64,000 nucleotides of DNA from Methanomassiliicoccales archaeon UBA280 (GTDB lineage Archaea; Thermoplasmatota; Thermoplasmata; SG8-5): NCBI GenBank assembly GCA_002499085.1, contig DAKD01000036.1, forward strand, positions 24,213-88,212, in the 5' to 3' direction. A program made the translations under genes and the position numbers. The number at the start of each line of letters is the position of its first letter. Position 1 is the stretch's first letter. This document shows, piece by piece, positions 7,451 to 22,526 of the stretch. The notes under the pieces are model-generated. The model was not told where the DNA came from and ran no database searches. It worked only from the letters and a program-made list of their open reading frames with translations.

Positions 7451-7478
7451 GTAAACAACCAGTTCCTCAAAGTGATAA

Positions 7479-7864: not shown

Positions 7865-8452
7865 CTACCAGGGCACATCCTTCTTCCCCATTTTAAACCC
7901 TATGATGTTCATTGCCCTGTGCATGAACGGTATCAGGATTATCAGGCCGATGAAACCGACGATGTATATCCCCTCTATCATGTTCCCGTAGAACCAGGAC
8001 CACTGAAGGGGGATGAGGAGGATGAGGGTTCCGATGAGGAAATCGTACTGGTCCAGTATCGGGGCCTTGGCGCCGCGCTTTATCCCCATTCGGCGCTTCA
8101 GGAAGCTGCCCAGCATGTCCCCGAACATCGAGCCGAAGCTCAGCAGGAACAGGATGAAAAGGGTGCAAAGTACGCAGGAGTTGCCAGGCAGATAAGTCCA
8201 CTCGGGGACGTCCAGGGCGATCATGATGCAGACCTGGATTATCCCGAGCGTCATGCCGCTCAGGGTCCCGCCGAACAGGCCGCGCCAGGTCTTGCCGTCC
8301 CCCAGGTACCTGGTTCCGTTTGCCATCTTCTTCCCGAAGTCAACGGGCGTTCCGCCGCCGAACAGCACGGCCGCGGAGTTCGGGATGAGCATGGGAACCA
8401 TGAGCCAGAGGGCCCTCATGACCGCGAGAATAGCGTCGATTAATTCCTGCAT
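7865..8452 (-). CDS. carS: CDP-archaeol synthase (CDP-2,3-bis-O-geranylgeranyl-sn-glycerol synthase)
   Basis: Polytopic membrane protein of 195 aa with DGKTWRG and the FGDMLGSFLKRR...DQYDF pattern typical of CarS (DUF46). Confidence 0.8.
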   Translation of the reverse strand: MQELIDAILAVMRALWLMVPMLIPNSAAVLFGGGTPVDFGKKMANGTRYLGDGKTWRGLFGGTLSGMTLGIIQVCIMIALDVPEWTYLPGNSCVLCTLFILFLLSFGSMFGDMLGSFLKRRMGIKRGAKAPILDQYDFLIGTLILLIPLQWSWFYGNMIEGIYIVGFIGLIILIPFMHRAMNIIGFKMGKKDVPW

Positions 8453-8618
8453 CGGCCGAGTATCGCCGGGCCCGATATTAAGGTTGTGAGGGGGCTGTTC
8501 CGACCAGGCCCTTACTATGCATCCTGCCCGACACAGGGGCAGCGGTGGCCCTGATTATCCGCACGGCCCTGGCTAAGGACTCCTGGGCAACCCCAGACTG
8601 GGTCATGAAGGGCAAAAT

Positions 8619-8638
8619 AATGTACATATAAGTACATT
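8619..8638. promoter_or_regulatory. Palindrome AATGTAC-ATATAA-GTACATT upstream of the giant-protein gene (possible operator/TATA)
   Basis: 7-bp perfect inverted arms around an A/T hexamer, about 65-85 nt upstream of the ATG at 8702. A second TATA-like element, CTTATAAC, lies at 8652-8659. Confidence 0.35.
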
Positions 8639-8701
8639 AAACAAACAAAAATCTTATAACCTATGAAACACATTCCACCTCAAGAGATAGGAGGGGTCAA
8701 G

Positions 8702-11700
8702 ATGAATGCCTTGAGCAGGAAGAGTTTTGCATCGGTGTGCGCAGCATTGATGATCGTGATGATTTTCCAGAATGTCTCAGCCGAAGGATACAACACGGGA
8801 GAAGATATGGACATCTTCATAGACTCGCACGGAAACGAGCACCAGGTCTGGAGGAAGCTGGTCAATGGAACTTACCAGGTATTTTACGGCTATGAAGTGG
8901 CAGACTCGATTTACAATACGAATTACGCCACTCACTCAAATCAGTCAATAAACAACAACATCGACTTCGACGACGGGTCCATTACAATTACCAATTGCTC
9001 CGTCAACGGCAATATCAAGCTCACCCAGGCCAATGCGTTTCTTCAGGATTGCAACATCAACGGGAACGTGAAAATCGACCTGGGCAGGCTCCAGATATTC
9101 AACTGTTCCATCAACGGCAACCTGGAAACAAAGAATGCGGATCTGGAGATCAGGTACTCAGACATGAACGGGAACCTGCAAGTGAAGCAAAGCAGCTACG
9201 AGAACATCGACAGCATCATAATAGCCAATGAGATAAACGGCAACCTGAAGGTTAAAGGCGGCACATGCTACATCGTCGGAAACACGATAAAAGGCAACCT
9301 CCAGGTGCAGGACCCGGCTATCATCCACCAGGTAATTGACAATACGGTGAATGGAAACATTCAATTAACTGATAACACACAAGGGTTTGACGGATACCAG
9401 ATAACGAATTCCACATCGGATGTCCAGTACCCTCAGTGCACAGTTGATTCAATTACCCATCTTGGTTATATTCTATGGGTGGAAAATGATTCAGAATTAT
9501 ACTATGTAGGAACTGATGATTTTGTTGTCTGGAGTCAACCTATATTACTCGCTTCGATAAATGCAACTATCAATCCAGAATTGAACATTGTTGCGATGAA
9601 CGGAACATTTAGTATTACTTCGAATATCATTGCACAAATCACATTCATCTCTGATATTGACGGGGATTTTTTCCCAGATAATTTTGACACAAATCCCATA
9701 TTATACGATGCTTTCTCCTACAATTCTTCATTTGTTCCAGATTCTGTGACGATAGATGTGAATTTGGGGATAAGTGTAGCTGTAGATTGGAAAAACGATT
9801 CGAGCATAAGACCAATTATTTCTCCAGTTGTACCAGCTAATCTATTGGTTGGTTCAATTGCCCCATATGTGGATATATCATTGCCAGATGGCGATTTCAC
9901 TGTATTGATTAAATACAAATATTCAAATTCTACGCTATCGCGATATATAAATGAAGATTATCTGCGGATCTTCGCTTACGAAGATGCCTGGCGAATGGTC
10001 GGTGATGTGAAAGGATGGATTGGAAGCGTCAACACAGAGAACAATTATGTATGGGCTAAAACCTCGGAACTCTCAATAGTCACTGTTGCGGATGCCTCAG
10101 CTACGGACCTGAATGTCAATGGCATACCGGACATATGGGACATTTCAGAAACATCCGATGAAGAAAACCCAAACTCGGATCGCTTGAGCATATATTCAGG
10201 TGATTCCCTTGCTCCGCAAATATACATTTCACCAGATGATATTTATCATATGGCTTGGATCGATAACAGGGATGGGTCGCCTGCCATATTTTACAAACAA
10301 AGCATGGATTATGGAGAAACCTGGACAACCGATACAAGCCTTACAGTTTCTTGTTTAGAGATTCCATCCATATCGTTTTCAGGATATAATAATCACCTTG
10401 CAATAGCATATACAGAAAATTACCAAATTGAGGAATATATCAACAGTAATGTCACGGTTTTAGAGAGTTTGGACGGGGGAATCACCTGGGAAATACTTTC
10501 GATACCGATGTGCTGGGGTGTAAATCCTTGCATATCAGTACATGAAAATGAAATATACCTCGTATATGACAAAATAATTCCCTCTGGTGTCAACTTACCT
10601 TCAATGCACATCCTGGAAGGGCTTCAACTTTCGTGGACAGAAGATGGAATCATGAATAGCCAGATATTACTCAGCACAGAAAGTGAGGCTCAGCACCTTG
10701 TGCCCAAAATATGCGTCGATAACAACGAAATATTCATTGTCTGGGCAGGATACTTTGAAGGTGAAGATTACAGTTATAATAAAATTTTTTACACCTACAG
10801 AGAAATCGGAGAAACAAACTGGGGCGACATTGAAGAAATTACATCTTATTATGGTGACAATGACCCATATGCAATTTCATTTGCAGCAAAAAACGATATT
10901 CTTTATCTTGCCTGGGCTGATGACAGAAACGGAGAATTTGAAATATATGGCAAATGGAGTGTAAGTAATTCGGGCATGTGGTCAGAAGATATAAGGCTGA
11001 CTGTATCTGATTTACCTTCAAGATATCCCAATTTATTTATCGACACAGAAGAAACAATCCAATTGGTTTGGCAGGAAGGAACGACAACAGAATCCGAAAT
11101 TTATCATATGGAATTAAATCCGACAACTCAACCAGCAGAAGAAATGGCAATCGGTGAACTACCTGAATTAAACGACGGCAACAGTTACCAATTAACCAGA
11201 GTTCCTGATGAAATTTATCAAATATTGACTGAAACCGATGTTCCTGCTCTAGTCAATGCTAATAGTGAATCATTAATTACTGGTAATTTAGTGAGTGGTT
11301 CAATTGCAGATACTTTTAATAGCGATAATCAATATGAGAAATTTTCTCCGGAAATAGCAAATAATCCATTCCAGATTGTTCATTCTTGGTATTTCCCCAT
11401 TTCCTCGGAAACATCATTCGACCTTTATTTCGAATCCAAGATTTCTCAAAATTTTGGCGCTCACCAGTTAACATACAGCATCTGGTATTCATTTGATAAC
11501 GGAGGAACTTATCAAATCCTCGGAACATACTCCAACATGGTAGATAATACATATGAGTTTCAGTTGACCTCGACAAACTCTGCCACTCAGTGTGAGGTTC
11601 AGTTACGGTATTCTCATGCCACAATCTCAGGTATTACAATTTCTGTCGACCGAGTACAAATCGGCCTTCCAACAACAGCAATGAAGATGACACACGACTG

Positions 11701-14700
11701 GGTTATGGATATAACCGTGCCGCAATCTACAACGCACACATTCTTTATAAAAGGTTATATGACATCTTCGACATCCTCAGATTCAAATGAAGGCGACAAT
11801 TTTTTATTCTCCTACTCGTTGGATAACAGCAACTACATAAACATGCTTGTTCTAGACAAGATAGCAGAGGATGGAAATTACCTGCAATATGCTTTACCTC
11901 CCATCCTCGCAGGCACAGTCTATATTCGGGTGATTGACACTATCCAGGCCGACAATGAAGTGATCGATAGCCTTTTCATCGACCACATGTACATTGAATC
12001 TATTTATAATGACATTGGAATTATTACACCTGCCAAACAAATCTCAAGCGACCAGGCCGTATCTTCAGGTTATCCGTCGGTGTCAATGAATTCCTTGGGG
12101 GACCTTTATGCAGTCTGGCAGGATTGTTCCTATGATAACTTTGAAGTAATCGCCATGACGGATGGGAGCGAATCGTCGGAAAAGACATCGCCTATTATCC
12201 AAATGCTCGCGGGATTGGATGATAGCATGTACAGCGAGGAGACTGAATATAATGTTGAAGCTTCAACCAATGTACCCTCAATACACAAAGACGCTCTTAT
12301 TTCACAATTGAATTTATTGTGCAATATGCTTGAAGCAGAGGACTATATTACTGCATTCAGTAAAATCCAATATGATATTATACCATACATTGATTCGGCA
12401 ATATTAGATGTATCTACAAAAGGAGAAGTTATAAATGCCCTTACTATTATTAGCGATTTAATAGAACCGATGGGTCAACAGGGCTCACCACCACCACCAC
12501 CAGGTCCTCCAGTTGATTTATGGGTGTCTACAGGTACTTCTGGAGGGGATATCCTCGTTGATTGGGCGCCACCAATACAAGGGGGTAATCCCACTAAGTA
12601 TTTAATATATAGAACAACAAATCCCACTATAGGCACTAGTATTACATATTGGAATTATTATATTAATATGTATAATAATAATGAAGGAAACGAATATAAC
12701 ATCGCCCATGTCGACATACCCTCAAGTATTACCAATTTTACAAATAGATATTATAATGACGCATCAACACCATATGACGATAGAATGGTTAGATGGGTCA
12801 CAACCTCCACAACAACTCCAGCCGAGCTGCAGTTTGAAATAACATATTATTATGCAGTCATTGCCTGTAATTCAGGAGGATTATCAGGACCTCAAATTGA
12901 ACTTGATAATTCAGCTTCTGCGGATGTTCCCACTTTGGTAACCTCATTTACTCCTTCGAGTGGCGCGACTGCAGTGAGTACAACAACGCTTATCGATATC
13001 TATTTCAACAAACCAATGAATTCGACCTCGGTCGAGTCTAAATTCACCTTGACCTATCTGGGGAATGCAATCCAATGCTCCGCAACATGGCCCACCACCA
13101 AACATGTTCAATTCCAGCCATCAGGCGATTTAACTCACGGTACAATATACACTGTCACTTTATTGGCTTATGCGAGGGCTACCGATGGATTGCACACACA
13201 AACCAAGACACAGTGGACCTTTACAACAGAGTTATCAGGAACACCAGAAGTTGTATGGTGGTCACCACAGGGGGATGAAGTATCATCCGGACCCATTATT
13301 GTAACATTCACAAATGAAATGAATCCCAGTTCTGTAGAAAATGCATTTGTTCTGAATGGATATTATTCAGGCATTATATCTGGATTCACATTCTCATGGT
13401 CAACTGATTATAAAACCATCACAGCCACACATTCTTCACACCCAATTTCCGAGGAATCTTACACAATCACCATCGCTGGGACTGTGCAAGACATTTATGG
13501 CACAGCCATTGCCAATGGCGGATGGACAAGCCCCCCATTCAGAACCCTAATAAATGTTTTCGATCCAGTCCTAACCACAACAGCCCAAGAATATCTCCTC
13601 TCATGGCCAGCTATCGGCAACCCAAGGAGTGTTAATCCATATGAGATATTGTTCTCTGACGATTTATCTGAATGGACTTCCTTGGGATATACCACTTCAA
13701 CAACCTATGTAATGGACACACTTACATATGGAATCTATGGCCTAAAACCACATAATCACTACTATTTCAAGGTCAGAGCCTACAACACAGCAGAATGCCA
13801 TGGAATCTCCATTCACAAAGGAGCAGATTGTGGACGTGTAGATTACTTCCTGGATGTAGGAAATATGGTCAATGCTCATGTATATGGTGGGAGAGACATG
13901 CCTTCTTATCCCAACATGATGCACGATTATGGCCTTACACTGACACCTATTCCTGCGGATCAGGTTGGATGGAGTACGCCAATTGAAAATAGCACATTTA
14001 ATTGGAGGCGAGGGACACAGGCAGAATACCAGAGATTCTTTTTTAACCTAGGTTGGAATGCTGAACTCCACATTGATTATATGCTCACGTTAAGATATTA
14101 TGCCAGCGGCACATTCAATTTAGAACAATTGGTTGCTGGCGGCAGCTGGCTCCCAGTTGGTGTAATTAACGGGCACAACCTCTGGGAAACTACAACAATT
14201 TTACTTGACCATAATAATTATTTCGATTATTCTGGGAGTGGAGATTGGGATGGCATGAATGTCCAATTTAGGTTTTCAGACAAGAATGTGATATATCTGG
14301 ACTGGATAAAGGCGGAACCACAAGCATATTATGCAGATATTCAGAAAGTTGATTTTGAAGATATAACAAAGCACAGTCCGGGAGTTTGCCTGAATCCAGG
14401 GGATTGGAGTGCTTGGGACTCGGGAGTGGGGGGAAGACTGGGAACTGTCGAAAGTAAAATTCAAATTAATTTACCTAGTACACAAGCTATTGATGTTCCA
14501 TATTATAGAATAAAGGTTACTTATAAATCATTCTCTGCTTCTCCTGAGGACAGCGAATTTTCTTTATATGATGGCACATCATTTGTACCTATTGATGAGG
14601 GGTGTATAATAACTGATCAGAATTGGCACTCAGTAGCTTTCAAAATTAATCCTGAAATGTACTATGATTATGACCCCAGCAATCTTCATTATAATCTTAT

Positions 14701-16012
14701 TATTAAAAGTAATGTAATCATGTATATCTCAGAAGTAGAACTATATCATATTTCGGAATCAGAACGGTGGACAGTTATGGTTTACTTTGTGGGAGATAAT
14801 GAAATTGAACCTCTGCTTATCAACGAATTTCAAGAATTGGAAGCGATTGGCTCAGGGGGTAAGTTAGATATTGTAGCTTTATTTGATAGAAGCAGTCAGG
14901 ATGAAGAAAGTGTATACAGGAATCAAGGCGCTGATGGGTTTAACCCACACCCCAATTGGCCATTTACCAATGAACCCAACCCAGAAACAGGAGATTGGGG
15001 TAGTGAAGCAAAGATGTTTCATGTTTTACATGATACAAATCTCAATAAATTTGCACCCTATGAAGAAAATATTAATTCATGGGATTTAGGTGAAATTGAA
15101 TGCGGTAATCCGGATACACTAAAAAATTTTATTGATTGGAGTACAGAAAACTTCCCTGCAGAACATTATGGATTAATTATGGTTGATCATGGTCAAGGAT
15201 GGCGTTGGATATGCCGTGAATATGCATATGCTGATTTCGATAGAATTGATATGCCCGAGTTAAAAAATGCCATAATTTCAACTGGAATTAAATTTGATTT
15301 CATTGGATTTGATGCGTGTGTTATGAACCAAATAGAAGTATTATATCAATTGATGGATTGTACACATTTTATTGTTGGTACAGAACACAGTATTGGAGTA
15401 AGTGGATGGCCTCTTCCGCCTATGTTAGAACCATTAAAAAATGAGTTGATTTCCCCCTATCAAATTTGTAAGCATTTTGCACAAACATACATATCTGTCA
15501 ATAATAACCCGTTAGATCCTTGGTATCCTCCTTATTACGATGAAAGGTCTGCCCCCCCAATGTCAGTTTTATCCACTGCAAAAATTATTCAATTCGTCAC
15601 GCAAATTTCTACTTTTGCTGATGAATTATTGAATTCACTTGAGGAGTATCGTGATGAAATAGAGCAAATAAGTTATGATGTTTATACTTCACAAGTTGTG
15701 GAAATACCTGGCTGGGGAGTAGATATTTATATACTTGCTGAATTAATTAGAACAAGAATAAACAATGATGAATTACAACAATGTGCTATAAATATTATTA
15801 ATCAGATACCGAATATAGTTTGCACGATAATTAAAGGCCCAATTATAGATAATCCTTTAGATTCTGGCATATCTATATTTTTTTACATATCTCCTAAATA
15901 TACTTATTCTTATCCAACATCATTGGAAACAAATTATCGGACTGAATTGGACTTTGCATATGACACCACATGGGATGAATTTTTATTGGCATTTTATGCT
16001 CCATATAAGTAA
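8702..16012 (+). CDS. Giant secreted multidomain protein with C-terminal clostripain-like (peptidase C11) domain
   Basis: I prefer the ATG at 8702 because GGAGGGG lies 7 nt upstream and it is followed by the signal-peptide-like MNALSRKSFASVCAALMIVMIFQNVSAEG. About nine ~20-aa NGN[ILV]x[LIV] beta-helix-like repeats come first. Asp-box/BNR motifs follow (SMDYGETW, SLDGGITW), then a PPPPPGPP hinge and an FN3-like module. Two SbsA/Big_5-like Ig modules are present (FNKPMNSTSVESKFTL; FTNEMNPSSVENAFVL), followed by jelly-roll modules. The C-terminal C11-like domain has MVDHGQGW (His) and FIGFDACVMNQ (Cys). Confidence 0.85.
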   Translation: MNALSRKSFASVCAALMIVMIFQNVSAEGYNTGEDMDIFIDSHGNEHQVWRKLVNGTYQVFYGYEVADSIYNTNYATHSNQSINNNIDFDDGSITITNCSVNGNIKLTQANAFLQDCNINGNVKIDLGRLQIFNCSINGNLETKNADLEIRYSDMNGNLQVKQSSYENIDSIIIANEINGNLKVKGGTCYIVGNTIKGNLQVQDPAIIHQVIDNTVNGNIQLTDNTQGFDGYQITNSTSDVQYPQCTVDSITHLGYILWVENDSELYYVGTDDFVVWSQPILLASINATINPELNIVAMNGTFSITSNIIAQITFISDIDGDFFPDNFDTNPILYDAFSYNSSFVPDSVTIDVNLGISVAVDWKNDSSIRPIISPVVPANLLVGSIAPYVDISLPDGDFTVLIKYKYSNSTLSRYINEDYLRIFAYEDAWRMVGDVKGWIGSVNTENNYVWAKTSELSIVTVADASATDLNVNGIPDIWDISETSDEENPNSDRLSIYSGDSLAPQIYISPDDIYHMAWIDNRDGSPAIFYKQSMDYGETWTTDTSLTVSCLEIPSISFSGYNNHLAIAYTENYQIEEYINSNVTVLESLDGGITWEILSIPMCWGVNPCISVHENEIYLVYDKIIPSGVNLPSMHILEGLQLSWTEDGIMNSQILLSTESEAQHLVPKICVDNNEIFIVWAGYFEGEDYSYNKIFYTYREIGETNWGDIEEITSYYGDNDPYAISFAAKNDILYLAWADDRNGEFEIYGKWSVSNSGMWSEDIRLTVSDLPSRYPNLFIDTEETIQLVWQEGTTTESEIYHMELNPTTQPAEEMAIGELPELNDGNSYQLTRVPDEIYQILTETDVPALVNANSESLITGNLVSGSIADTFNSDNQYEKFSPEIANNPFQIVHSWYFPISSETSFDLYFESKISQNFGAHQLTYSIWYSFDNGGTYQILGTYSNMVDNTYEFQLTSTNSATQCEVQLRYSHATISGITISVDRVQIGLPTTAMKMTHDWVMDITVPQSTTHTFFIKGYMTSSTSSDSNEGDNFLFSYSLDNSNYINMLVLDKIAEDGNYLQYALPPILAGTVYIRVIDTIQADNEVIDSLFIDHMYIESIYNDIGIITPAKQISSDQAVSSGYPSVSMNSLGDLYAVWQDCSYDNFEVIAMTDGSESSEKTSPIIQMLAGLDDSMYSEETEYNVEASTNVPSIHKDALISQLNLLCNMLEAEDYITAFSKIQYDIIPYIDSAILDVSTKGEVINALTIISDLIEPMGQQGSPPPPPGPPVDLWVSTGTSGGDILVDWAPPIQGGNPTKYLIYRTTNPTIGTSITYWNYYINMYNNNEGNEYNIAHVDIPSSITNFTNRYYNDASTPYDDRMVRWVTTSTTTPAELQFEITYYYAVIACNSGGLSGPQIELDNSASADVPTLVTSFTPSSGATAVSTTTLIDIYFNKPMNSTSVESKFTLTYLGNAIQCSATWPTTKHVQFQPSGDLTHGTIYTVTLLAYARATDGLHTQTKTQWTFTTELSGTPEVVWWSPQGDEVSSGPIIVTFTNEMNPSSVENAFVLNGYYSGIISGFTFSWSTDYKTITATHSSHPISEESYTITIAGTVQDIYGTAIANGGWTSPPFRTLINVFDPVLTTTAQEYLLSWPAIGNPRSVNPYEILFSDDLSEWTSLGYTTSTTYVMDTLTYGIYGLKPHNHYYFKVRAYNTAECHGISIHKGADCGRVDYFLDVGNMVNAHVYGGRDMPSYPNMMHDYGLTLTPIPADQVGWSTPIENSTFNWRRGTQAEYQRFFFNLGWNAELHIDYMLTLRYYASGTFNLEQLVAGGSWLPVGVINGHNLWETTTILLDHNNYFDYSGSGDWDGMNVQFRFSDKNVIYLDWIKAEPQAYYADIQKVDFEDITKHSPGVCLNPGDWSAWDSGVGGRLGTVESKIQINLPSTQAIDVPYYRIKVTYKSFSASPEDSEFSLYDGTSFVPIDEGCIITDQNWHSVAFKINPEMYYDYDPSNLHYNLIIKSNVIMYISEVELYHISESERWTVMVYFVGDNEIEPLLINEFQELEAIGSGGKLDIVALFDRSSQDEESVYRNQGADGFNPHPNWPFTNEPNPETGDWGSEAKMFHVLHDTNLNKFAPYEENINSWDLGEIECGNPDTLKNFIDWSTENFPAEHYGLIMVDHGQGWRWICREYAYADFDRIDMPELKNAIISTGIKFDFIGFDACVMNQIEVLYQLMDCTHFIVGTEHSIGVSGWPLPPMLEPLKNELISPYQICKHFAQTYISVNNNPLDPWYPPYYDERSAPPMSVLSTAKIIQFVTQISTFADELLNSLEEYRDEIEQISYDVYTSQVVEIPGWGVDIYILAELIRTRINNDELQQCAINIINQIPNIVCTIIKGPIIDNPLDSGISIFFYISPKYTYSYPTSLETNYRTELDFAYDTTWDEFLLAFYAPYK

Positions 16013-16023
16013 TAGGAGGATTT

Positions 16024-17130
16024 ATGAAAAATAATATCCAGTGGTTCATTGTCGTAATATTATCAATTTCATTGATTCTATCAATTTATTACATAACCTC
16101 CCGAACTAGAGACGAATTAAACTCTTACACAATAGAAATTACACCACCAGAATACATGATATTATCTGAAGCTTGTAATATTACAGCATCAATCACTGGT
16201 GCTAAAACAGAACTTGTATATTTAAATTACACAGACATATATAATGATAGTTATTCAAAGATGATGAATTTTACAAATGAATCTTATTATTGTAATATCC
16301 CTCCACAACAAAATCTTGGTACCATTAGATATAATGTATGGGCACAATCACAAACCAATATAATTGCAACAACAGATGTTTTCACTCTGAAAGTAATATT
16401 AAACCCATTCAGTGCTAGTAATCTGGTTATCGCCCATATTAAATCAAATATTACCAATAGAAATGAAGTCGCACTTTTACAATATTCTCCATTACCAGAT
16501 TTTATTCATATTAGGCCTCTATTTAGAAATACAACCATTAGTAATCAATCTGGATTTAATCATATTGTTTCGAATTTTGAATCTATGTTTTACACACCAG
16601 TATTATTCTCAAATGATACTTCTATTCAAACGTGCATTTTCGTCAACCTTGAAAACCTAAACATAGAGATACAATATTTCAAAGGCAGTTTATATCTTAA
16701 CAATACTCAAATTTTGAATAGTATGCTTAATGAAAACATTACAATTACATCATTCAATATTCCATTAAATAATGAATATTACCCTTCGATTCAGATGGAA
16801 AATGCTACCAATCAAATTATTTCAATGGTGCAATTAATAAGAGGAGATGATAGTCAGACAATTGTTTTACAGTGCTCTGAGCCAGTTAAATGGGATGTAT
16901 ATAATAAAACTGAGTATTATTGGACCTACCAAATCCCAAATTTATGGCCAGGAACATTTCAACAATCTGAGTTATGGTTGATTTCATCTGAAAATAAAAG
17001 TTCGAATTATAATGAGGGTTCACAACCATATCTCTCAGTGACAATCGATAATGAAATATTTATAATTTCGAGAAGCTTCATAGGCACTGAAGATTCAGTG
17101 TTTGTTGTATTCACAATACCAAATTTATAA
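16024..17130 (+). CDS. N-terminally anchored, sequon-rich hypothetical membrane/surface protein
   Basis: AGGAGGA lies 5 nt upstream of the ATG. It has the N-terminal TM helix WFIVVILSISLILSIYYI and about 20 N-X-S/T sequons. No recognisable catalytic motif. Very AT-rich. Confidence 0.7.
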   Translation: MKNNIQWFIVVILSISLILSIYYITSRTRDELNSYTIEITPPEYMILSEACNITASITGAKTELVYLNYTDIYNDSYSKMMNFTNESYYCNIPPQQNLGTIRYNVWAQSQTNIIATTDVFTLKVILNPFSASNLVIAHIKSNITNRNEVALLQYSPLPDFIHIRPLFRNTTISNQSGFNHIVSNFESMFYTPVLFSNDTSIQTCIFVNLENLNIEIQYFKGSLYLNNTQILNSMLNENITITSFNIPLNNEYYPSIQMENATNQIISMVQLIRGDDSQTIVLQCSEPVKWDVYNKTEYYWTYQIPNLWPGTFQQSELWLISSENKSSNYNEGSQPYLSVTIDNEIFIISRSFIGTEDSVFVVFTIPNL

Positions 17131-17192
17131 CAATAGTTTATATAGACATAGGTGCTTTGACATAAATATCAAACCTACAATAGGTGGAAGAC

Positions 17193-20100
17193 ATGAGGAA
17201 GAAATTATTCGCATCCTGGCTGTGCCTGATACTGGTATTATCAACATTCATAATCACCACAATTGTCAGTGATAATGCTGAGGGAAAGGAAAACGTGATT
17301 AACGGAACCGCATACATCGCCAGCGCACCCTTTCGCATCAATTCCAACGCGGACTTCGCCACGTCCCCCAAGGTGACGGGCGGGGATGGCTCCGCTGGGA
17401 ACCCCTGGATTATTGAGAACTTCGAAATTAATGGGACTGGGTATGGATCATGTATTTACATTGGAAATACCACTGATTATTTTATAATTAGAGATTGTTA
17501 TTTACATGATGCTAGCGGAAGTTTAAGTAATTTGTTTAGCTATCGTGCGAATTCCGGGATTTATTTTTTCCATGTGACGAATGGTGCGATAATCAATAAC
17601 ACAATAATCTCGAACGACCAATATGGCATGTTACTTTTTTGGGATAGTTATAACAACCTCATTGCTGACAACAATATCACCTATAATTCGGTTGGTGTTT
17701 TTCAATGGCAAAGCTGGACTGGGAATACATTTTCAAATAACACATTTTTTAATAACAACTATGGTATTAGATTATACTACGCTCGGAGTGATACATATTC
17801 CGATAATTTATTCTTGAATAATGCATATGACATCCAGCTTGAGGCCTCAACTGACCTAACCTTGGTTAATAATGAGATGATTGGAAATGGAATTTTCATC
17901 GATGGCGGGGAAACGGCCTGGGAATCACATTCGATTGACACTACAAACACCGTTAACGGTAAACCTGTTCGATATTATGCGAACCAGAACAGTATTACGG
18001 TTCCCACGGACGCAGGCCAGATAATTTTTGCAAAATGCACGTTGTCGGTAATCGAAAACCAGAATTTGTCTAATGTCTCAGCTGGAATATCATTGGGATA
18101 TTCCTCAAACATTACAATTCGCAACAATAACCTGTCTTCATGCAATTATGGAATATATCTCCAAGGTTCCGATTATAATGACATCATTAACAATACAGTC
18201 TCGAATAATGAAAACGGCATGGCCCTTTCTCAGTCGGATTTTAATCATTTGGCCGACAATATTGCAAATTTTAATAATAATTCAGGCATTGGTTTTTTAG
18301 ATCTCAACTACAATTCTTATAACAATACCATAATAAATAATGCATTTTATAATAATTACAATGCTATAGACCTATTGCACTGTTGTAATGCTTCCGTTAT
18401 GAATAACACTGCATTCAACAACACCAATTGCGGTATTTCAATAAGTGCGAGTTCTAATAATGCGATCTTACAAAACAATGTTACATGGAATGGATGGGGT
18501 ATTGTGATAAATAGCATCAACAATCTTGTGAAGAATAACAATGCCTCTAACAACGCTTGGTCTGGCATCACATTGAGCGGAGGAAATGACAATATGTTAT
18601 GCAACAACACTGTTTATAACAATAGTTATTCTGGCATTCAAATATCCAGTAAATATTCTAACAATGTCGAGAATAACACAGCAATAGGAAATCCTGTCGG
18701 TTTTCTACTTAAGGGCTCACAGTTCGCCCTCGTCAAGAACAACCAGGTGCTTGACAACAATGTTGGCTTCTCTCTGACCGGATCTAGGTATAATAGGATT
18801 TTCGGCAACATGATTGAAAATTCTAAATTCGGGATGTTCCTTGATTCCTCGACCAATAATTACATTGGAGAAAATGCCATATACAATTCCACAGGCATGA
18901 CAGGAAGTTCCGAGTATTCATCATTCGAGATGGGTCTCGATGTTTATCAGAACGACCCAGACTGGTCAGCCTACTCAAGCTTCGAGGAACAGCTGGCGAC
19001 GGGCGATGGCGGTAACCCGCTGTTCACCAGGGCGGTTGATCTTGTGGACACACTAATATTCGATGTTCGGATAATAGGCCAGGCCAATGCTTATGATCTT
19101 GACCTGGGCATTTTCCTTGACGGGATGGGTGGCAACCCTATCGATGGAATTACCCAGACCGGAGAATTCGTAGCAATGTGCGCTGACAACGACGCTGAAG
19201 AGAGCGTCAGACTTTCGGTTGTGGAAGATGGCACATACCTTATCCGCGTTTTTGGATTCACACTCGGCACAAATCCGGCTCAATTTGACATGGACATCAA
19301 CATCATCAACGGAACCAGTACTGGAGTATATCTGATGAACTCCACTTACAACAGGATTGTGAACAACAATATTTCGTACAATGCTCAGGGGCTAAATCTG
19401 ACGCAGGCGTCCAACTTCAACCTCTTGCATTATAATAACATCGCTGGAAACGCTGTCCAGGCCTTTGATGATGGGCATAATCTATGGAATGCATCATATC
19501 CGACAGGTGGCAATTTCTGGTCCGATTACGCAGGTGTGGACGCCTTCTCCGGGCCTAACCAGAACATCGCTGGAAGTGATGGAATCGGGGATACACCATA
19601 TACGACCATCATAGGAGGAGCGAATGAGGATTCGTATCCATTGATGAGTTACACAGACAGTGTGTACATCGATATCACACCTCCCACGTCAAGTGCTTCT
19701 GTAATCGGGGAAACCATATTTCCACCGTTGAGTTGGGGAACTTGCGATATATTGGTCAATGCCACCGATGATTATAGCGGGATAGCGAATATCACGCTCT
19801 GGTACAGACACAGCCTCAACAATGTGTCATGGGGTTCATGGACTGTTTATCTAACGGGTGAGAATCTGGTTTCATTCGAGTTCAACCCTGTGTTCGGGAC
19901 CTTGACTGGCGAAGGCCATTACCAGTTCTACACTATTGCGACTGATTGTGCCGGGAACATTGAGGTAAAACCGCAAGCTACGGAAGCGCATTGGTTGTTC
20001 GACCTCACTGCCCCCGAAAGCGAGGTATTGCAACCCGCAAGTTACTGGAACATTCCCCCTCTTGATATGCAGGTAAATGTCGCTGACAACACGAATTCCA

Positions 20101-21473
20101 CCAGCAATGTCGAGGTGCTTTACAGGTTCAGCCCGGACAATGCGACCTGGGGTGGCTGGACCTCGTATGGCAACATCACTGCAGAACCCTGGAATTTAGC
20201 CTTCGATTTCCCTGCCGGGCAGGGCATTTACCAGTTCTACAGCCGGGCGAACGATACTTCCGGCAACCTGGAGAACGCCACCGCAGTGGCCCAGGCGACA
20301 ATCGGTTACGATGTTTCTCAGCCGCTTCTGACGGACAATACGCCTGCTGTCGGAACCACAGGCGATGCATTCCAGTTCCAGGTTGCTGCAACGGACAATA
20401 TCGCACTTGCGGAAGTCAATGTCGTGTACAGTTTCGGATCAGGGAACGAGACCAATGCCACCATGATCTCCGGATCTGGCGACTCCTATACCTTCGGCAT
20501 CGCCATCCCCATCGGAAGCCTGGATGTTCTTCATTACAGGATAGCGGCGGTGGACTCGGCCGGAAACTGGTACTCCACATCGACAAGAAATGTCATTGTT
20601 TCGGACAATGACAATCCGGCTGCCGATGCCGGCCCTGACCAAACGACGATGGCCGGTTCCGTGGTCTTTTTCACCGCTGCCGCAAGCACAGACAATATCG
20701 GCATTGTGAATTTCACTTGGACGTTCAATGAAGGCGCAGGCAGCATCGCCCTCTTCGGCGTTTCTCCCTCTCACAATTTCACAGTGCCCGGCAATTACAC
20801 TGTGCTCCTGACGGTATTGGACGCGGCCGGGAATGCCGGAACCGATACAATGCTGGTTACAGTGACGGAGCTGGCTCCGGTCATCGACAATATCCCGCCA
20901 ACAGCCAATGCAGGCTCTGACAGGTCTGTCACCATGGGCGCCGAGATAACATTTGACGGCTCTGCCAGCACAGACAATGTCGGCATAGCAAATTTCACCT
21001 GGACATTCACGCATAACGGCACAGCGGTCACCCTCTATGGCGCCTCCTCCTCTTTCAGGTTCTGGGAGGCAGGGAACCACACAGTTACATTGAATGTGAC
21101 CGATGCCGCAGGCAACTGGGACACGGACTCCATGAATATCGAGGTCTTGGAAATCCCCCCGGAGGCCGACGAGCCTGGCAATTACACCTGGCTCATTGTG
21201 ATAATCATCATAATACTGGTTGCGGTCGTTCTGGTCATGTGGCTGCAGAAGCGCGGGAAGCCCGAGGCTCCCGAGGAGACTGCCGAACCGGCTCCGGAGC
21301 CCCATCAAACCCAACCCGAGGCCACCAAGGAAAGTGCAGAACCGACTCCGGAACCACCAAAGCCCGAACCTAAGCTGGACAGGGAGGAGATGCTCCGGAG
21401 GATCGAGAAGGCTTACAAGGAGGGCAGGATGAACGAGGAGCAGTACAGGAAGAACCTCGATAAGTTCCGATAG
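17193..21473 (+). CDS. Surface protein: parallel beta-helix (NosD/PbH1-like) + PPC-like insert + Ig-like + 2x PKD + TM + SHOCT-like tail
   Basis: The ATG at 17193 follows GGTGG. Signal/anchor MRKKLFASWLCLILVLSTFIITTIV. A long run of Asn-rich beta-helix turns follows. The insert reads YDLDLGIFLDG...YLIRVFGF. There are repeated Ig-like modules (GxYQFY..A.D..GN.E) and PKD modules (ADAGPDQT..., ANAGSDRS...). The TM helix is WLIVIIIIILVAVVLVMWL. The Pro/Glu-rich tail ends in EEMLRRIEKAYKEGRMNEEQYRKNLDKF. Confidence 0.85.
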   Translation: MRKKLFASWLCLILVLSTFIITTIVSDNAEGKENVINGTAYIASAPFRINSNADFATSPKVTGGDGSAGNPWIIENFEINGTGYGSCIYIGNTTDYFIIRDCYLHDASGSLSNLFSYRANSGIYFFHVTNGAIINNTIISNDQYGMLLFWDSYNNLIADNNITYNSVGVFQWQSWTGNTFSNNTFFNNNYGIRLYYARSDTYSDNLFLNNAYDIQLEASTDLTLVNNEMIGNGIFIDGGETAWESHSIDTTNTVNGKPVRYYANQNSITVPTDAGQIIFAKCTLSVIENQNLSNVSAGISLGYSSNITIRNNNLSSCNYGIYLQGSDYNDIINNTVSNNENGMALSQSDFNHLADNIANFNNNSGIGFLDLNYNSYNNTIINNAFYNNYNAIDLLHCCNASVMNNTAFNNTNCGISISASSNNAILQNNVTWNGWGIVINSINNLVKNNNASNNAWSGITLSGGNDNMLCNNTVYNNSYSGIQISSKYSNNVENNTAIGNPVGFLLKGSQFALVKNNQVLDNNVGFSLTGSRYNRIFGNMIENSKFGMFLDSSTNNYIGENAIYNSTGMTGSSEYSSFEMGLDVYQNDPDWSAYSSFEEQLATGDGGNPLFTRAVDLVDTLIFDVRIIGQANAYDLDLGIFLDGMGGNPIDGITQTGEFVAMCADNDAEESVRLSVVEDGTYLIRVFGFTLGTNPAQFDMDINIINGTSTGVYLMNSTYNRIVNNNISYNAQGLNLTQASNFNLLHYNNIAGNAVQAFDDGHNLWNASYPTGGNFWSDYAGVDAFSGPNQNIAGSDGIGDTPYTTIIGGANEDSYPLMSYTDSVYIDITPPTSSASVIGETIFPPLSWGTCDILVNATDDYSGIANITLWYRHSLNNVSWGSWTVYLTGENLVSFEFNPVFGTLTGEGHYQFYTIATDCAGNIEVKPQATEAHWLFDLTAPESEVLQPASYWNIPPLDMQVNVADNTNSTSNVEVLYRFSPDNATWGGWTSYGNITAEPWNLAFDFPAGQGIYQFYSRANDTSGNLENATAVAQATIGYDVSQPLLTDNTPAVGTTGDAFQFQVAATDNIALAEVNVVYSFGSGNETNATMISGSGDSYTFGIAIPIGSLDVLHYRIAAVDSAGNWYSTSTRNVIVSDNDNPAADAGPDQTTMAGSVVFFTAAASTDNIGIVNFTWTFNEGAGSIALFGVSPSHNFTVPGNYTVLLTVLDAAGNAGTDTMLVTVTELAPVIDNIPPTANAGSDRSVTMGAEITFDGSASTDNVGIANFTWTFTHNGTAVTLYGASSSFRFWEAGNHTVTLNVTDAAGNWDTDSMNIEVLEIPPEADEPGNYTWLIVIIIIILVAVVLVMWLQKRGKPEAPEETAEPAPEPHQTQPEATKESAEPTPEPPKPEPKLDREEMLRRIEKAYKEGRMNEEQYRKNLDKFR

Positions 21474-21571
21474 ATATTTTAGGGATGTCCCCCCAAGTGC
21501 GACCCTGGTGCATATCGGAAACATTGTGCCGCCAGCCAATCGCTCGCCGGAGGAGCCCGGGGGCGCGACAT

Positions 21572-21590
21572 TCCCCGCAGGGGCGGGGGC
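21572..21590 (+). terminator. GC hairpin CCCCGC-AGGG-GCGGGG downstream of the 17193 gene (member of the CCCCGC(C)/G(G)CGGGG-CATG family)
   Basis: Inverted repeat read at 21573-21588, followed by GCATG as in the copies at 29258-29269 and 30617-30626. Confidence 0.4.
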
Positions 21591-21641
21591 ATGATGGCCG
21601 AGCGAATTCATAATGGTGTTGGGTACCCGAGGTCCGTCTGT

Positions 21642-21685: not shown

Positions 21686-22486
21686 ATGGATTGGGGCATG
21701 AAGAACCGCTTGTCGAGGATAATAAAACCGAAAGACGGAAAGACCGTGATGCTGGCAGTCGACCATGGGTATTTCATGGGACCGACGACGGGCCTGGAGC
21801 AGCTGGACAAGATGGTTTTGCCGCTGCTGCCGCATGCTGACACGCTGATGCTGACTCGCGGAGCCCTGCGGAACTACATTCCCCCTGAAACAGACATACC
21901 CGTGGTCCTGCGCGTCTCGGGAGGCACCAGCATCCTGAACGATGAGCTGCTGCACGAAGGAATTACCGTTTCCATGGAGGACGCTGTCCGGCTGAACGTC
22001 TCCGGAGTGGCATTCTCGATAATGGTCGGCGCGAAGTTCGAGCGGGACACGTTGCTGGCATTCACCGAGATAGTGGACGAGGCCGAGGCCATGGGAATCC
22101 CCGTGATTGCCGTGACTGCCGTCGGAAAGGACATGGCCAGGGACGCGAAATACATGGCCCTGGCTTCCAGGATTGCCGCGGAACTCGGAGCGCACATTGT
22201 CAAGACCTATTATGTCGACGGATTCGAAAAGGTGATCGAGTCATGCCCTGTGCCTGTGGTCATCGCCGGAGGCAAGAAGACCGACGAGATAACAGCTCTG
22301 AATACAGCCTACAATGCGATCCAGGCCGGCGCTGTCGGCGTGGACATGGGCAGGAACATATTCCAGGCCAGGGATCCTGTTGCGATGATCCAGGCAGTCA
22401 ACGCGGTCGTCCACGGCAACCAGACACCGGACGAGGCATACCAGCTCCTCGCGAGAAGCCAATCCGGAAGGTACTCGAGGAGATGA
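21686..22486 (+). CDS. DhnA/LsrF-family class I aldolase (DeoC/LacD superfamily)
   Basis: Motifs DWGMKNRLSRI, AVDHGYFMGPTTGLE, IVKTYY, VVIAGGKK, GVDMGRNIFQ. As I recall the families, these match the LsrF / archaeal FBP-aldolase-ADH-synthase group. Confidence 0.8.
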   Translation: MDWGMKNRLSRIIKPKDGKTVMLAVDHGYFMGPTTGLEQLDKMVLPLLPHADTLMLTRGALRNYIPPETDIPVVLRVSGGTSILNDELLHEGITVSMEDAVRLNVSGVAFSIMVGAKFERDTLLAFTEIVDEAEAMGIPVIAVTAVGKDMARDAKYMALASRIAAELGAHIVKTYYVDGFEKVIESCPVPVVIAGGKKTDEITALNTAYNAIQAGAVGVDMGRNIFQARDPVAMIQAVNAVVHGNQTPDEAYQLLARSQSGRYSRR

Positions 22487-22526
22487 AACCGCATAATTCT
22501 ATATCGGATGCCGCCGATACAGTACC

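Follow-up and report, generated by a model that had tools for sequence, protein, structure and literature searches.

An archaeal surface-protein island with compositional steps inside its genes

Within the window, the 64,000-nucleotide stretch of DNA analysed here, positions 8456-21585 are tentatively interpreted as a flexible genomic island that encodes three cell-surface proteins and was shaped by sub-genic recombination that repeatedly brought together host-adapted conserved modules and sequences of an AT-rich gene pool. The mosaic structure of the block is genuine and of a broadly familiar type, that of variable surface-gene islands, and its layout recurs in distant relatives. The host is a GC-rich Thermoplasmata archaeon, in which the block lies between the conserved CarS-like and DeoC genes, in their divergent promoter region; the locus is organised as follows.

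8456..21585, no strand: three-gene island (ORF1-ORF2-ORF3) with its non-coding ends, 13.1 kb, present here and not in sister genomes
7865..8452, minus strand: CarS-like gene (CDP-archaeol synthase family, by Pfam), left flank, host composition (GC3 0.84)
8453..8493, no strand: spacer by the start of the CarS-like gene with a TATA-like element, ~60% gapped match to the sister spacer
21585..21623, no strand: 39-nt segment at the right island edge, 34/39 identical to the L034 spacer
21686..22486, plus strand: DeoC-family aldolase gene, right flank, host composition

Sister genomes were reached through the 90%-identity cluster of the DeoC-family aldolase. In these genomes the CarS-like and DeoC genes are adjacent, 35-240 bp apart, and the whole island is missing, its host-like ends included (n=4 independent sister contigs). 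The alignment with sister contigs L025-L028 stops at ~8416-8455 at the CarS-like gene, which shares 75-77% nucleotide identity with its sisters, and restarts at 21593 upstream of DeoC; in L033 and L034 the match of the 39-nt spacer restarts at window position 21586. This 39-nt segment is located directly upstream of the CarS-like gene in the sister genomes, and the spacer at 8453-8493 is possibly a diverged copy of it, a resemblance too weak to establish a duplication of the flank. The non-coding ends of the island are host-like (GC 0.53-0.58). No integrase, transposase or PHROG match was found within 8456-21585, nor were clear att sites, target duplications or integration scars found at the island. 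An earlier sequence-only reading had explained the pattern by exchange inside conserved gene ends and had argued that whole-gene transfer could not produce it. That argument is half right, because no resident conserved gene ends are demonstrated at this locus, and the whole block, ends included, is a presence/absence difference. The alternative cassettes that it had suggested seeking in sister genomes were not found there; the sisters carry an empty site. Because it is absent from the sisters, the island is accessory DNA in any case, and presence/absence alone does not tell whether it was gained here or lost in the sister clade.

Overall GC is 0.52-0.60 in the flanks and drops to 0.29-0.43 between ~9.0 and 19.0 kb; host genes have a GC3 of 0.68-0.84 and host intergenic DNA has a GC of 0.49. 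Roughly 0.9 kb at the 5' end of the island and 1.6-2.8 kb at its 3' end use host synonymous codons, and the 9.4-kb core is AT-rich, with a GC3 of 0.23-0.40 and AT segments that fall below the host intergenic value. Codon usage was compared with that of 22 host genes of the window, and change points were tested by LLR, with 2-log-likelihood support and 500 codon permutations. The 5' segments of ORF1 (z -1.4) and ORF3 (z -1.8) matched host codon usage, the AT segments departed from it by z -18 to -37, and the AAC/AAT, GAC/GAT, TAC/TAT and CAG/CAA ratios reversed across nt 9332 (Fisher p 2e-4 to 7e-3). The proposal that an AT-rich block has its boundaries inside intact ORFs was thereby borne out: the steps are synonymous, intragenic and sharp, the positions given for them agree with the computed change points to ~30-200 nt, and the reading frames are open across the junctions. 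It had been allowed that GC3 might show no step, the effect being only the amino-acid composition of Asn/Ile/Tyr-rich repeats, and codon positions 1 and 2 are AT-rich across all three proteins; however, the GC3 expected from each segment's amino acids and host codon usage is 0.73-0.75 everywhere, which excludes a pure amino-acid effect. The ORF1 5' module, moreover, has the lowest GC1 and GC2 (0.36-0.49 and 0.26-0.33) but a GC3 of 0.69, and with the synonymous pairs reversing across the junction this explanation retains practically no probability.

The first two genes and their segments are listed below.

8702..16012, plus strand: ORF1, predicted secreted giant protein of 2436 aa (2449 aa from the ATG at 8663)
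8663..9331, plus strand: host-like 5' segment of ORF1 (codons 1-223) with signal peptide and NGN-repeat module, GC3 0.69
9317..9362, plus strand: junction J1, GC3 0.69 to 0.37, best change point nt 9332
9332..14449, plus strand: AT-rich ORF1 body, GC3 0.37, z -37 against host codon usage
14450..16012, plus strand: part of ORF1 richest in AT, holding the C11 peptidase module (~14780-15985), GC3 0.23
16024..17130, plus strand: ORF2, 368 aa, N-terminal membrane helix and many N-x-S/T sequons

ORF1 combines a signal peptide, an N-terminal module that is specific to the family and contains the NGN repeat, Asp-box (SxDxGxTW) motifs, two Big_5 Ig-like domains and, at its C-terminus, a C11 peptidase of the clostripain type (Pfam Peptidase_C11, aa 2040-2441). 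Its 5' segment has a relative synonymous codon usage (RSCU) correlation of 0.76 with host core genes and 78-82% aa identity to P0005. At J1 the drop in GC3 is very large, from 0.69-0.75 to 0.34 within ~8 codons; the change point at nt 9332 (...CAC CAG before it, GTA ATT GAC AAT... after it) has an LLR of 32 with support 9317-9362, against a permutation maximum of 10.7 (n=500). The switch seen by eye after the NGN module is therefore a real step, but the 5' segment is only ~47% GC overall and not 50-60%, because codon positions 1 and 2 are AT-rich. A further change point lies at ~14450 (LLR 17, support 14306-14480). The best homologues of the body are P0002, P0003 and P0004, at 39-45%, and homology to these three stops at aa ~2030. 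ORF2 is AT-rich throughout (GC3 0.24), matches no known family and has no homologue in any fetched locus; it is a small membrane glycoprotein-like protein.

The third gene is divided as follows.

17193..21473 (start 17184/17193), plus strand: ORF3 surface protein, 1426 aa, from Pfam and homologues
17300..17423, plus strand: short GC-rich patch of ~120 nt with a conserved N-terminal cap motif (APFRINSNADF...GDGSAGNPW), from the codon listing
17424..18710, plus strand: AT-rich N-terminal beta-helix, GC3 0.38-0.40
18711..19874, plus strand: intermediate segment with the PPC-like insert and second beta-helix part, GC3 0.54
19875..21473, plus strand: near-host-like 3' part with Ig-like repeats, PKD and anchor, GC3 0.67

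ORF3 runs from a signal peptide through a NosD/right-handed beta-helix, a PPC-like insert, Ig-like repeats and two PKD domains to a C-terminal membrane anchor and charged tail, and is 55-57% identical to L035_1169 and P0016. Codons 1-80 have a GC3 of 0.65. The host-like start that had been described corresponds to a real GC-rich patch, but one that spans about codons 40-80 and not the signal peptide itself, and the change point at nt 17424 is marginal (LLR 8.5; 99th percentile of the permutations 7.1, maximum 12.4). Its counterpart, the first 60 codons of L035_1169, has a GC3 of 0.70-0.90. The beta-helix at 17424-18710 is the part of ORF3 least conserved relative to L035_1169 (aa identity ~0.4). 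The return at the PPC-like insert is likewise real (nt 18711, LLR 33), but it is a two-step ramp, to 0.54 and then to 0.67, rather than a single switch, and the 3' part lies at z -4.5 from host codon usage, with an RSCU correlation of 0.74 with host core genes.

The junctions do not depend on a single assembly. Position nt 9332 is crossed at 99.98-100% identity by L001, a 161-kb contig of an ENA megahit assembly, and by L002, L003 and L004, from two JGI samples and one Logan run; the ORF3 junctions are covered by each of the ten contigs L001-L010. With the window included, the junctions occur in at least five independent assemblies and are therefore not chimeric. Furthermore, homologues P0004-P0013 align unbroken across ORF1 aa 223, and P0016 and L035_1169 do so across the ORF3 steps. 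Several short contigs start or stop at recurrent positions (9158/9166, 9410 and 21443), as the joining of a GC-rich and an AT-rich organism during metagenome assembly might produce; these ends suggest assembly-graph branches in conserved motifs. Since independent assemblies span the junctions, the frames are open and homologues align unbroken, such an artefact, which the sequence-only reading had named as a concern, is essentially refuted and hardly credible. Every metagenome contig that includes the block has it in identical form, and the population is clonal across at least ten metagenome contigs.

The ORF1 family shuffles modules. Proteins whose bodies are unrelated have the N-terminal module (aa 14-~500) in common, some members possess the NGN repeat and others lack it, and the C-terminal enzyme domain is a C11 peptidase here, PAD_porph in P0002/P0003 and another domain in P0004. 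The nearest relative of ORF1 is P0005 to aa ~270 (73-87% identity) and P0002/P0003 from aa ~360 (57-90%). This protein-similarity crossover (aa ~300-360) differs in position from the GC3 step (aa 223), and residues 224-300 are 57-73% identical to P0005, yet AT-rich. In family members of GC-rich hosts, the GC-rich part always begins at the 5' end and ends at different codons (~75-100, ~223-232, ~665 and ~1100), as crossovers at varied points would produce. C-terminal domains are the most AT-rich parts also in L011, L013, L015 and L035, and orphan island genes that have no conserved modules (ORF2, L011_339, L019_315 and L035_450) are AT-rich throughout, with no GC-rich 5' end. AT segments have a GC3 of 0.23-0.40 against host backgrounds of 0.45-0.85, and this host-independent level, below the intergenic 0.49, argues against simple decay in place. 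By GC-normalised dinucleotide signature, the AT blocks of four hosts cluster (delta* 36-61) far from host cores (128-171), a grouping that is confounded by common amino-acid composition. No donor, alternative allele or cassette, or near-identical paralogue of the island genes was found. At best, matches reach 80% aa for the ORF1 N-terminus and 57% aa for ORF3, with silent sites saturated in every homologue; no cluster copy above 60% aa was present among 5.8 billion protein clusters, and the genome yielded no paralogue able to convert the ORF1 5' module.

The same layout occurs elsewhere. L035, from another GC-rich host, has a homologous cluster at an unrelated locus (42-55% aa identity) that also shows the GC/AT/GC layout; window-wise GC3 correlates with it at r 0.39-0.46 for ORF1 and ORF3, and ORF1 correlates with P0003 at r 0.39. 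The aligned step of L035_1169 falls at ORF3 aa 579, the same aligned residue as the ORF3 step. The AT-rich TPR arm previously noticed in the STAND gene from ~55320 was confirmed (GC3 0.79 to 0.35 at nt 55320, LLR 62), and the syntenic STAND homologue in sister genome L036 has a like GC3 layout (r 0.85). Protein divergence of the TPR arm does not exceed that of the nucleotide-binding domain (NOD), and the silent-site excess between the sister homologues is 0.03 in the AT-rich TPR arm versus 0.27 in the GC-rich NOD, with 0.42-0.61 in neighbour genes. Silent sites are thus saturated in the TPR arm and not in the NOD, so these parts of the gene differ in history or rate. The TPR arm and an AT patch at 33992-34945 inside a 2821-aa ORF belong to the conserved architecture of homologues and are not private insertions. 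Local GC3 correlated with local protein conservation in ORF1 (r 0.49-0.52 versus both homologues) and in the L035 ORF3-like gene (0.54), and not significantly in ORF3 itself (r 0.24). Taken together, the L035 cluster and the L036 STAND gene suggest a layout that recurs across the family rather than one recent exchange.

Recombination with an AT-rich donor, as first proposed from the letters, agrees with the shuffled modules and sharp steps, but no donor was found and the layout extends to distant homologues. On the reading that we tentatively prefer, these modular gene families would have recombined homologously within their conserved modules, by cassette exchange or gene conversion. Host-adapted copies would thereby have been joined to counterparts drawn from surface-protein genes that circulate horizontally in an AT-rich pool, and this sub-genic exchange would be recurrent in the lineage rather than a single recent event. 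The synonymous steps, their independence from assembly, the island's presence/absence, the module shuffling and the recurring layout were observed directly; that recombination caused them, which way the exchange ran and that an AT-rich pool exists are inferred. The mismatch between the GC3 step and the similarity switch in ORF1, the clonal population and the lack of mobility genes also count against it. Because the layout is common to diverged homologues, recombination would need to recur at the same module boundaries, or else a compositional regime is maintained in place. Such a regime is the main rival, although we consider it unlikely. GC3 would be raised in ordinary genes and conserved modules, either by selection for GC-ending codons or by GC-biased gene conversion that accompanies homologous recombination, and this force would barely reach poorly conserved, lineage-specific repeat and solenoid modules; the latter would lie near an AT-rich mutational equilibrium, and the steps would be limits of the force, not import junctions. 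A shared equilibrium would account for the host-independent GC3 of AT segments, and a maintained regime for layouts kept by diverged homologues whose silent sites are (nearly) saturated (ORF3/L035_1169, STAND/L036, ORF1/P0003), for AT stretches within conserved architecture and for GC3 tracking conservation in ORF1, though not significantly in ORF3; higher GC3 in recombining genes of most bacterial species tested (PMC4450053) also speaks for it. It is harder to reconcile with so abrupt a step inside one conserved N-terminal module, AT-rich residues so similar to P0005, AT segments well under host intergenic GC, boundaries that differ among family members, the missing converting paralogue, and an island that is accessory anyway.

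Transfer of an already mosaic cluster as a whole block from other GC-rich Thermoplasmata, with no intragenic recombination here, appears quite improbable. It would explain why the entire block is missing in sisters, why a homologous cluster of the same layout sits at an unrelated locus in L035, and why the non-coding ends are host-like; the dinucleotide signatures of the host cores are almost the same in the window, L035 and L011 (delta* 21-51), so a donor of the L035 or L011 kind would look host-like. However, it merely relocates the origin of the mosaic, and neither a close cluster copy nor mobility genes or integration scars accompany it.

Among known systems, pneumococcal pbp genes and Neisseria surface antigens are mosaic through intragenic homologous recombination with a diverged donor. 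The island resembles them in abrupt block boundaries within an intact frame and in conserved segments as crossover sites; in those genes donor and recipient alleles are known and blocks are set by divergence among conspecific alleles, whereas here blocks are set by composition only, no donor is known and the layout is common to distant homologues. In the model of Lawrence and Ochman, atypical horizontally acquired islands ameliorate by gradual, uniform drift towards host composition. Being AT-rich and accessory within a GC-rich genome, and missing from relatives, the block fits that picture, but host-like ends, sharp internal steps and the same layout in a 42-55%-identical cluster elsewhere do not. 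For bacterial recombination, the associated effect reportedly amounts to a few percent of GC3. Under the GC-biased gene conversion hypothesis in bacteria, recombination is associated with higher GC3 (PMC4450053), and here too GC3 is higher in conserved modules, in which homologous recombination should be possible, than in segments that are unique or variable; however, that effect is at whole-gene scale in bacteria, and the differences here are 0.3-0.5 within genes of an archaeon. Flexible (replacement or additive) genomic islands of aquatic prokaryotes encode cell-surface structures and giant proteins, as in GI1 of Haloquadratum walsbyi (PMC4535781; PMC4033161). Unlike GI1, the present island faces an empty site and not alternative versions in the sister genomes examined, shows no co-existing variants in its population, and has its compositional boundaries inside island genes rather than in flanking core genes. 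Like that cell-wall island, it groups genes for surface and giant proteins in a strain- or species-specific stretch between conserved syntenic genes, has an atypical composition, lacks clear signs of illegitimate recombination at the edges, and has homologous recombination invoked as the source of its diversity.

Across the three surface-protein genes of the island at 8456-21585, the GC content of the window falls to 0.29-0.43 between ~9 and 19 kb. Ordinary genes of the window have a GC content at synonymous sites (GC3) of 0.68-0.84, and the mean GC of its non-coding DNA is 0.49. The host is a GC-rich archaeon whose genes in the window include a CarS-like CDP-archaeol synthase, a FlaI-type ATPase and a CheB/CheR fusion, and matches to the flanking genes bear the labels Thermoplasmata or Thermoplasmatota archaeon. 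The island encodes exposed envelope components (signal peptides, a membrane anchor, NosD beta-helix, PKD, Big_5 and Asp-box).

Features of the island, its flanks and the GC3 of its segments
7865-8452 (-): CarS-like gene, left flank
8663/8702-16012: ORF1, secreted giant protein with signal peptide, NGN-repeat N-terminal module, Asp-box motifs, two Big_5 domains and a C-terminal clostripain-type C11 peptidase
ORF1 codons 1-223: GC3 0.69
9332-14449: AT-rich body of ORF1, GC3 0.37
14450-16012: most AT-rich part of ORF1, GC3 0.23
16024-17130: ORF2, orphan protein; single membrane helix at the N-terminus, N-x-S/T sequons at 3.8 per 100 residues, GC3 0.24
17184/17193-21473: ORF3, NosD beta-helix/PKD protein; carries a PPC-like insert and is membrane-anchored at its C-terminus
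ORF3 first 80 codons: GC3 0.65
17424-18710: AT segment of ORF3, GC3 0.38-0.40
18711-19874: intermediate segment of ORF3, GC3 0.54
19875-21470: 3' part of ORF3, GC3 0.67
21686-22486 (+): DeoC-family aldolase gene, right flank

The sequence-only reading had proposed an AT-rich block whose boundaries fall inside intact genes, and these switches proved to be real at silent sites. Change-point analysis placed a GC3 step in ORF1 at nt 9332 (log-likelihood ratio, LLR, 32; support 9317-9362; maximum in 500 codon permutations 10.7), which is readable by eye (...CAC CAG, then GTA ATT GAC AAT...), and a step in ORF3 at nt 18711 (LLR 33). A step in ORF3 at 17424 is marginal (LLR 8.5 vs a permutation 99th percentile of 7.1 and a maximum of 12.4); the signal peptide of ORF3, which had been taken to be host-like, lies outside the GC-rich stretch there, a ~120-nt patch that covers the conserved cap motif instead. 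From amino acids and host codon usage, a GC3 of 0.73-0.75 is expected in every segment. The 5' segments of ORF1 and ORF3 fit host codon usage (z -1.4 and -1.8), and the AT segments are off it by z -18 to -37; the core at 9332-18710 (GC3 0.23-0.40 vs 0.68-0.84 in the host) is thus atypical in codon usage, and the ends of the block are host-like. Furthermore, AAC/AAT, TAC/TAT and similar synonymous pairs flip at the ORF1 junction. Because the silent sites deviate from the amino-acid-based expectation, amino-acid composition does not explain the steps, and the refutation named beforehand, that no true GC3 step would be found but only an amino-acid effect, was rejected.

An assembly artefact at the junctions, named beforehand as another possible refutation, was excluded by independent contigs and homologues. 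Assemblies from ENA, JGI and Logan include 15 contigs that encode the exact ORF2 protein, and ten metagenome contigs compared with the window were 99.98-100% identical to it. Nt 9332 is crossed by four of them (L001, of 161 kb, L002, L003 and L004) and the ORF3 steps by every one of the ten, and homologous proteins align unbroken over the composition steps. With the junctions repeated in 4-10 independent contigs and bridged by homologues, an assembly chimera is rejected, and chimera and amino-acid artefact together retain at most a negligible probability. Independent short-read assemblies repeatedly break at the exact positions 9158-9166, 9410 and 21443, inside conserved family motifs (QITNSTSDVQYPQC and C-terminal ...QYRKNLDKFR); three short contigs share a start at 9410 and three share an end at 21443, each site within such a motif. 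These recurrent ends at 9410 and 21443 suggest assembly-graph branches with related sequences, and the breaks at all three sites hint at co-occurring sequences that share at least 31-mers and are possible recombination partners. The exact 30-mer from 9411-9440 had 0 matches in the JGI metagenome contig collection. Contigs otherwise identical differ by a 69-nt (23-codon) tandem copy number at ~24827-24840, in the ORF at 23051-24961 (-), which has 659 aa in L001 and L003 and 636 aa in the window.

N-x-S/T sequons are abundant in ORF2 and ORF3, and no ORF2 homologues were found in related loci. The ORF3 family is very large within Thermoplasmatota (966 matches at E<=1e-10). Among 5.8 billion clusters, 15 proteins belong to the ORF1 family; a scan of GTDB species representatives gave 5 loci in 3 species, and a profile scan of the JGI metagenome contig set gave 3 loci (L022, on the same contig as L011, and L023 and L024, with the same results as L013 and L014); with only 5 loci in 3 species in the GTDB scan, the ORF1 family is rare. 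It is also modular: the N-terminal ~500 residues are common to proteins with unrelated bodies, the homologues P0002 and P0003 are without the NGN repeat, and the C-terminal enzyme domain varies (C11 in ORF1, PAD_porph in P0002 and P0003, another in P0004). Up to aa ~270, ORF1 is 73-87% identical to the homologue P0005; from aa ~360 it is 57-90% identical to P0002 and P0003 and merely 10-40% identical to P0005. Judged by these alignments, ORF1 is an apparent mosaic at the protein level, and the change of nearest relative at aa ~300-360 indicates past module shuffling; the GC3 step (aa 223) falls within the P0005-like part.

ORF1-family giant genes adjoin NosD beta-helix genes in at least three hosts (the window, L035 at 3726-15199 and L011 at 7965-17797), at an unrelated chromosomal locus in each; the two therefore move, or are retained, together. 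The L011 pair sits between ribosomal-protein and RNA-polymerase operons, beside an HTH_Tnp_1 gene.

Sister lineages were reached through members of the 90%-identity cluster of the DeoC flank. In four independent sister contigs (L025/26, from a Thermoplasmata MAG, L027/28, L033 and L034), the CarS-like and DeoC genes lie side by side in divergent orientation, separated by 35-240 bp, with 70-81% DNA identity to the window in the flanking genes and full synteny; sisters at ~91% DeoC identity have the empty site. Window 8456-21585 is thus extra relative to the sisters, and this extra DNA takes in both host-like parts, the 5' end of ORF1 and the 3' half of ORF3. The alternative cassettes that had been anticipated in sister genomes were not seen at this empty site; the whole block, ends included, is what varies. 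A 39-nt spacer that abuts the CarS-like gene in the sisters now lies at window 21585-21623 (34/39 identical), and a weak ~60% match to it beside the window's CarS-like gene is the sole flanking similarity, on which grounds a target-site duplication at the island edges was rejected. A 390-aa antisense ORF (20439-21611, -) begins in this relocated CarS-proximal spacer and overlaps the GC-rich 3' part of ORF3; it is probably spurious, a product of the GC-rich composition. No mobility Pfam or PHROG match was found in the three ORFs and no tRNA at the island edges, and a virus or provirus origin was rejected for want of PHROG matches. In a tree, the empty-site sisters form one clade relative to the window, so that gain here and loss there are equally parsimonious on presence/absence alone; composition favours gain in the window lineage over loss in the sisters.

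Other differences surround the site. The sister contigs L029-L032 break off a short way upstream of DeoC, in non-coding DNA rich in repeats; their first 90-490 nt hold short tandem repeats with units of 7, 14, 23 and 34 nt, and L030 1-89 is an inverted match, at 85%, to window 7627-7540. At the insertion site of the island, these lineages may have DNA that resists assembly. Three more stretches (window 6246-6892, 7451-7861 and 22485-23057) are absent from sister L027/L028 and therefore point to several small indels around the island. Two are non-coding (GC 0.44-0.45) and the third is a YdjM-family gene, present in L029-L032 and absent in L025/L027.

Searches of protein databases, a representative library, and genome and metagenome scans returned no donor or alternative allele closer than 57-80% amino-acid identity. 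Silent sites are saturated against all homologues compared, and the best nucleotide BLAST matches to the GC patch and to parts of ORF3 were short motifs of no more than 82% identity; on these grounds a recent donor was rejected. In a self-BLAST of the 64-kb window, the 5' end of ORF1 and both ends of ORF3 matched only themselves; a repeat finder run on 6200-8700 gave short chance matches only, and no paralogue was found in databases that include this organism's assemblies. Because the 64-kb window holds no silent partial copies, a programmed antigenic-variation cassette system is ruled out. Among the metagenome contigs carrying the block, no conspecific variant of the island was found (population contigs 99.98-100% identical).

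The same layout was found in diverged homologues. L035, from another GC-rich host (core GC3 ~0.72), carries a homologous cluster at an unrelated locus, made up of an ORF1-like gene (42% amino-acid identity), a 450-aa NosD gene and an ORF3-like gene (55%).

GC3 along the homologous cluster of L035
ORF1-like gene: 0.53 in the first 75 codons, then 0.3-0.45, final part 0.27-0.31
Middle gene: 0.32
ORF3-like gene: 0.70-0.90 in the first 60 codons, 0.34-0.46 in the beta-helix, then 0.6-0.72

The step up in the ORF3-like gene aligns exactly with ORF3 residue 579, the start of the PPC-like insert. Window-wise GC3 is correlated between homologues (ORF3, r 0.46, p 0.004; ORF1, r 0.39, p 0.001) despite nearly saturated silent sites. 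Local GC3 also follows local protein conservation in ORF1 (r 0.49-0.52, both homologues) and in the ORF3-like gene of L035 (r 0.54); for ORF3 itself the correlation is not significant (r 0.24).

The AT-rich TPR arm noticed in the STAND gene (from ~55320) is likewise real and is kept in the syntenic homologue of the sister genome L036, which is 56% identical, next to KaiC-like and response-regulator genes 86-92% identical to those of the window. No GC3 step in the window is sharper than the one at nt 55320 (0.79 to 0.35), and L036 steps down at the same boundary between the nucleotide-binding domain (NOD) and the TPR arm (r 0.85, 30-codon windows). Protein divergence from L036 is no greater in the TPR arm than in the NOD; the silent-site excess is 0.03 (saturated) in the TPR arm, 0.27 in the NOD and 0.42-0.61 in the neighbours. 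Beside the STAND gene, a NosD-like gene (56168-57232, -) is 39-44% identical to its L036 counterpart, and by this comparison window 53259-57232 vs L036 6001-9736 is a hypervariable spot inside conserved synteny.

In a 2821-aa FG-GAP/TPR/HhH ORF (30959-39424, -), a 318-codon AT-rich patch at 33992-34945 has a GC3 of 0.37 vs 0.76 upstream; because the full-length homologues P0165 and P0173 (46-49% identity) align over it, the patch is no private insertion. Residues 1792-1909 of this ORF share a module with ORF1 aa 998-1114 (33% identity, E 4e-12). The AT-rich signature said to reappear at 43.45-46.9 kb holds as moderate AT-richness of the 43.5-47 kb stretch, which is preceded by a tRNA-Met (42961-43035). 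L036 has syntenic counterparts of its genes (YdjM-like, KaiC-like ATPase, response regulators), at 70-92% identity and with a similarly lowered GC3, and the stretch is therefore no obvious recent integrated element.

In relatives with GC-rich cores (GC3 0.6-0.87), ORF1- and NosD-family genes stand as AT-rich single genes or small islands between core genes.

GC3 of ORF1- and NosD-family genes at related loci, and end of the GC-rich 5' part
L011: genes 0.38, 0.40 and 0.28 vs background ~0.76; transposase-like HTH gene adjacent
L013: 0.42
L015: 0.39
L019: genes 0.35 and 0.23 vs background ~0.70
L021: 0.53 vs background ~0.68
GC-rich 5' part ends at codon ~75-100: L011 and L015
GC-rich 5' part ends at codon 223-232: window and L013
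GC-rich 5' part ends at codon 665: L014/L024
GC-rich 5' part ends at codon ~1100: L016

The host L012 is lower in GC (background GC3 0.45), and its ORF1 homologue is lower still, at a uniform 0.28; the AT segments are therefore at ~0.23-0.40 whatever the host. Within the ORF1 family in GC-rich hosts, the GC-rich part always runs from the 5' end and its stop point varies, and the small orphan genes of these islands are without a GC-rich 5' end. Genomic signatures set the AT blocks apart from host cores (3-1 dinucleotide distance 155-188, and 96 between two host-core halves), in a test that amino-acid composition confounds and that is weak, since the first distance is only about twice the second.

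Taken together, these data are best explained, at a probability just short of even, by recurrent sub-genic recombination that would join host-adapted modules with an AT-rich surface-gene pool. Such recombination, anchored in conserved modules, fits the sharp silent-site steps, the host-like ends and the module shuffling of the family; the variable crossover positions with 5' polarity and the uniformly AT-rich orphan genes; the composition of the AT segments, which is independent of the host and below host intergenic GC; and the discordant silent-site divergence inside the STAND gene. Many facts thus agree with the earlier proposal that conserved parts served as anchors and that exposed parts are of other origin; a recent exchange at this locus is not supported. 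The sisters are without the resident gene ends that would have recombined with an AT-rich donor, no donor or alternative cassette appeared in any collection searched, and the composition step of ORF1 (aa 223) lies away from the switch of its relatives (aa ~300-360). The same layout in L035 and L036 speaks against a single recent exchange, and requires that exchange has recurred at identical module boundaries or that a cause has been maintained over time.

A maintained cause of this kind, in the form of a module-specific compositional regime held in place by codon selection or by GC enrichment through recombination confined to conserved modules, is rather unlikely; recombination-dependent GC enrichment provides the comparison for it (PMC4450053). 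The correlations between GC3 and conservation bear on such enrichment indirectly, and no polymorphism was seen among the contigs. More broadly, it is possible, if doubtful, that the long modular genes of this clade carry heritable sub-genic compositional domains whose module boundaries persist through speciation and silent-site saturation. N-terminal caps, NOD and Ig/PKD ends would then be kept at host-like GC3, and beta-helix, TPR, giant-protein bodies and C-terminal enzyme domains at ~0.25-0.40. This would need an active, module-specific cause, the fading scar of one transfer being insufficient; candidates are GC-biased conversion limited to those modules for which recombination partners are still available, and selection for slowly translated AT-ending codons in solenoid domains. 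That an already mosaic cluster arrived from a similar GC-rich relative is distinctly improbable.

The finding at this locus is real and goes beyond a trivial island, yet it is of a known kind; what was unexpected is that composition steps inside genes are conserved between diverged homologues. If recurrent recombination is the cause, the locus would be a clean natural example, in uncultivated archaea, of surface-protein remodelling by whole-module exchange, in which module ends would serve as crossover anchors and envelope diversity, and presumably virus or partner recognition, would change at a pace beyond the reach of whole-gene transfer. If a maintained regime is the cause, it would offer a within-gene contrast for what holds prokaryotic GC above the AT-biased mutational equilibrium. 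Such genes will be split by binning tools and by composition-based detectors of horizontal transfer.

A typical integrative element does not describe this locus. Its closest described counterparts are flexible genomic islands that hold envelope and giant-protein genes, whose diversity has been attributed to homologous recombination and mobile elements (PMC4033161, PMC4535781); this locus shares with them its gene content, conserved flanks and freedom from integration scars. Unlike those islands, it faces an empty site in the sisters, without co-existing versions. AT-rich accessory islands of surface-protein genes are common, and this one is set apart by composition boundaries that run through its own intact genes and are met again at equivalent positions in diverged homologues, whose proteins are 42-57% identical.
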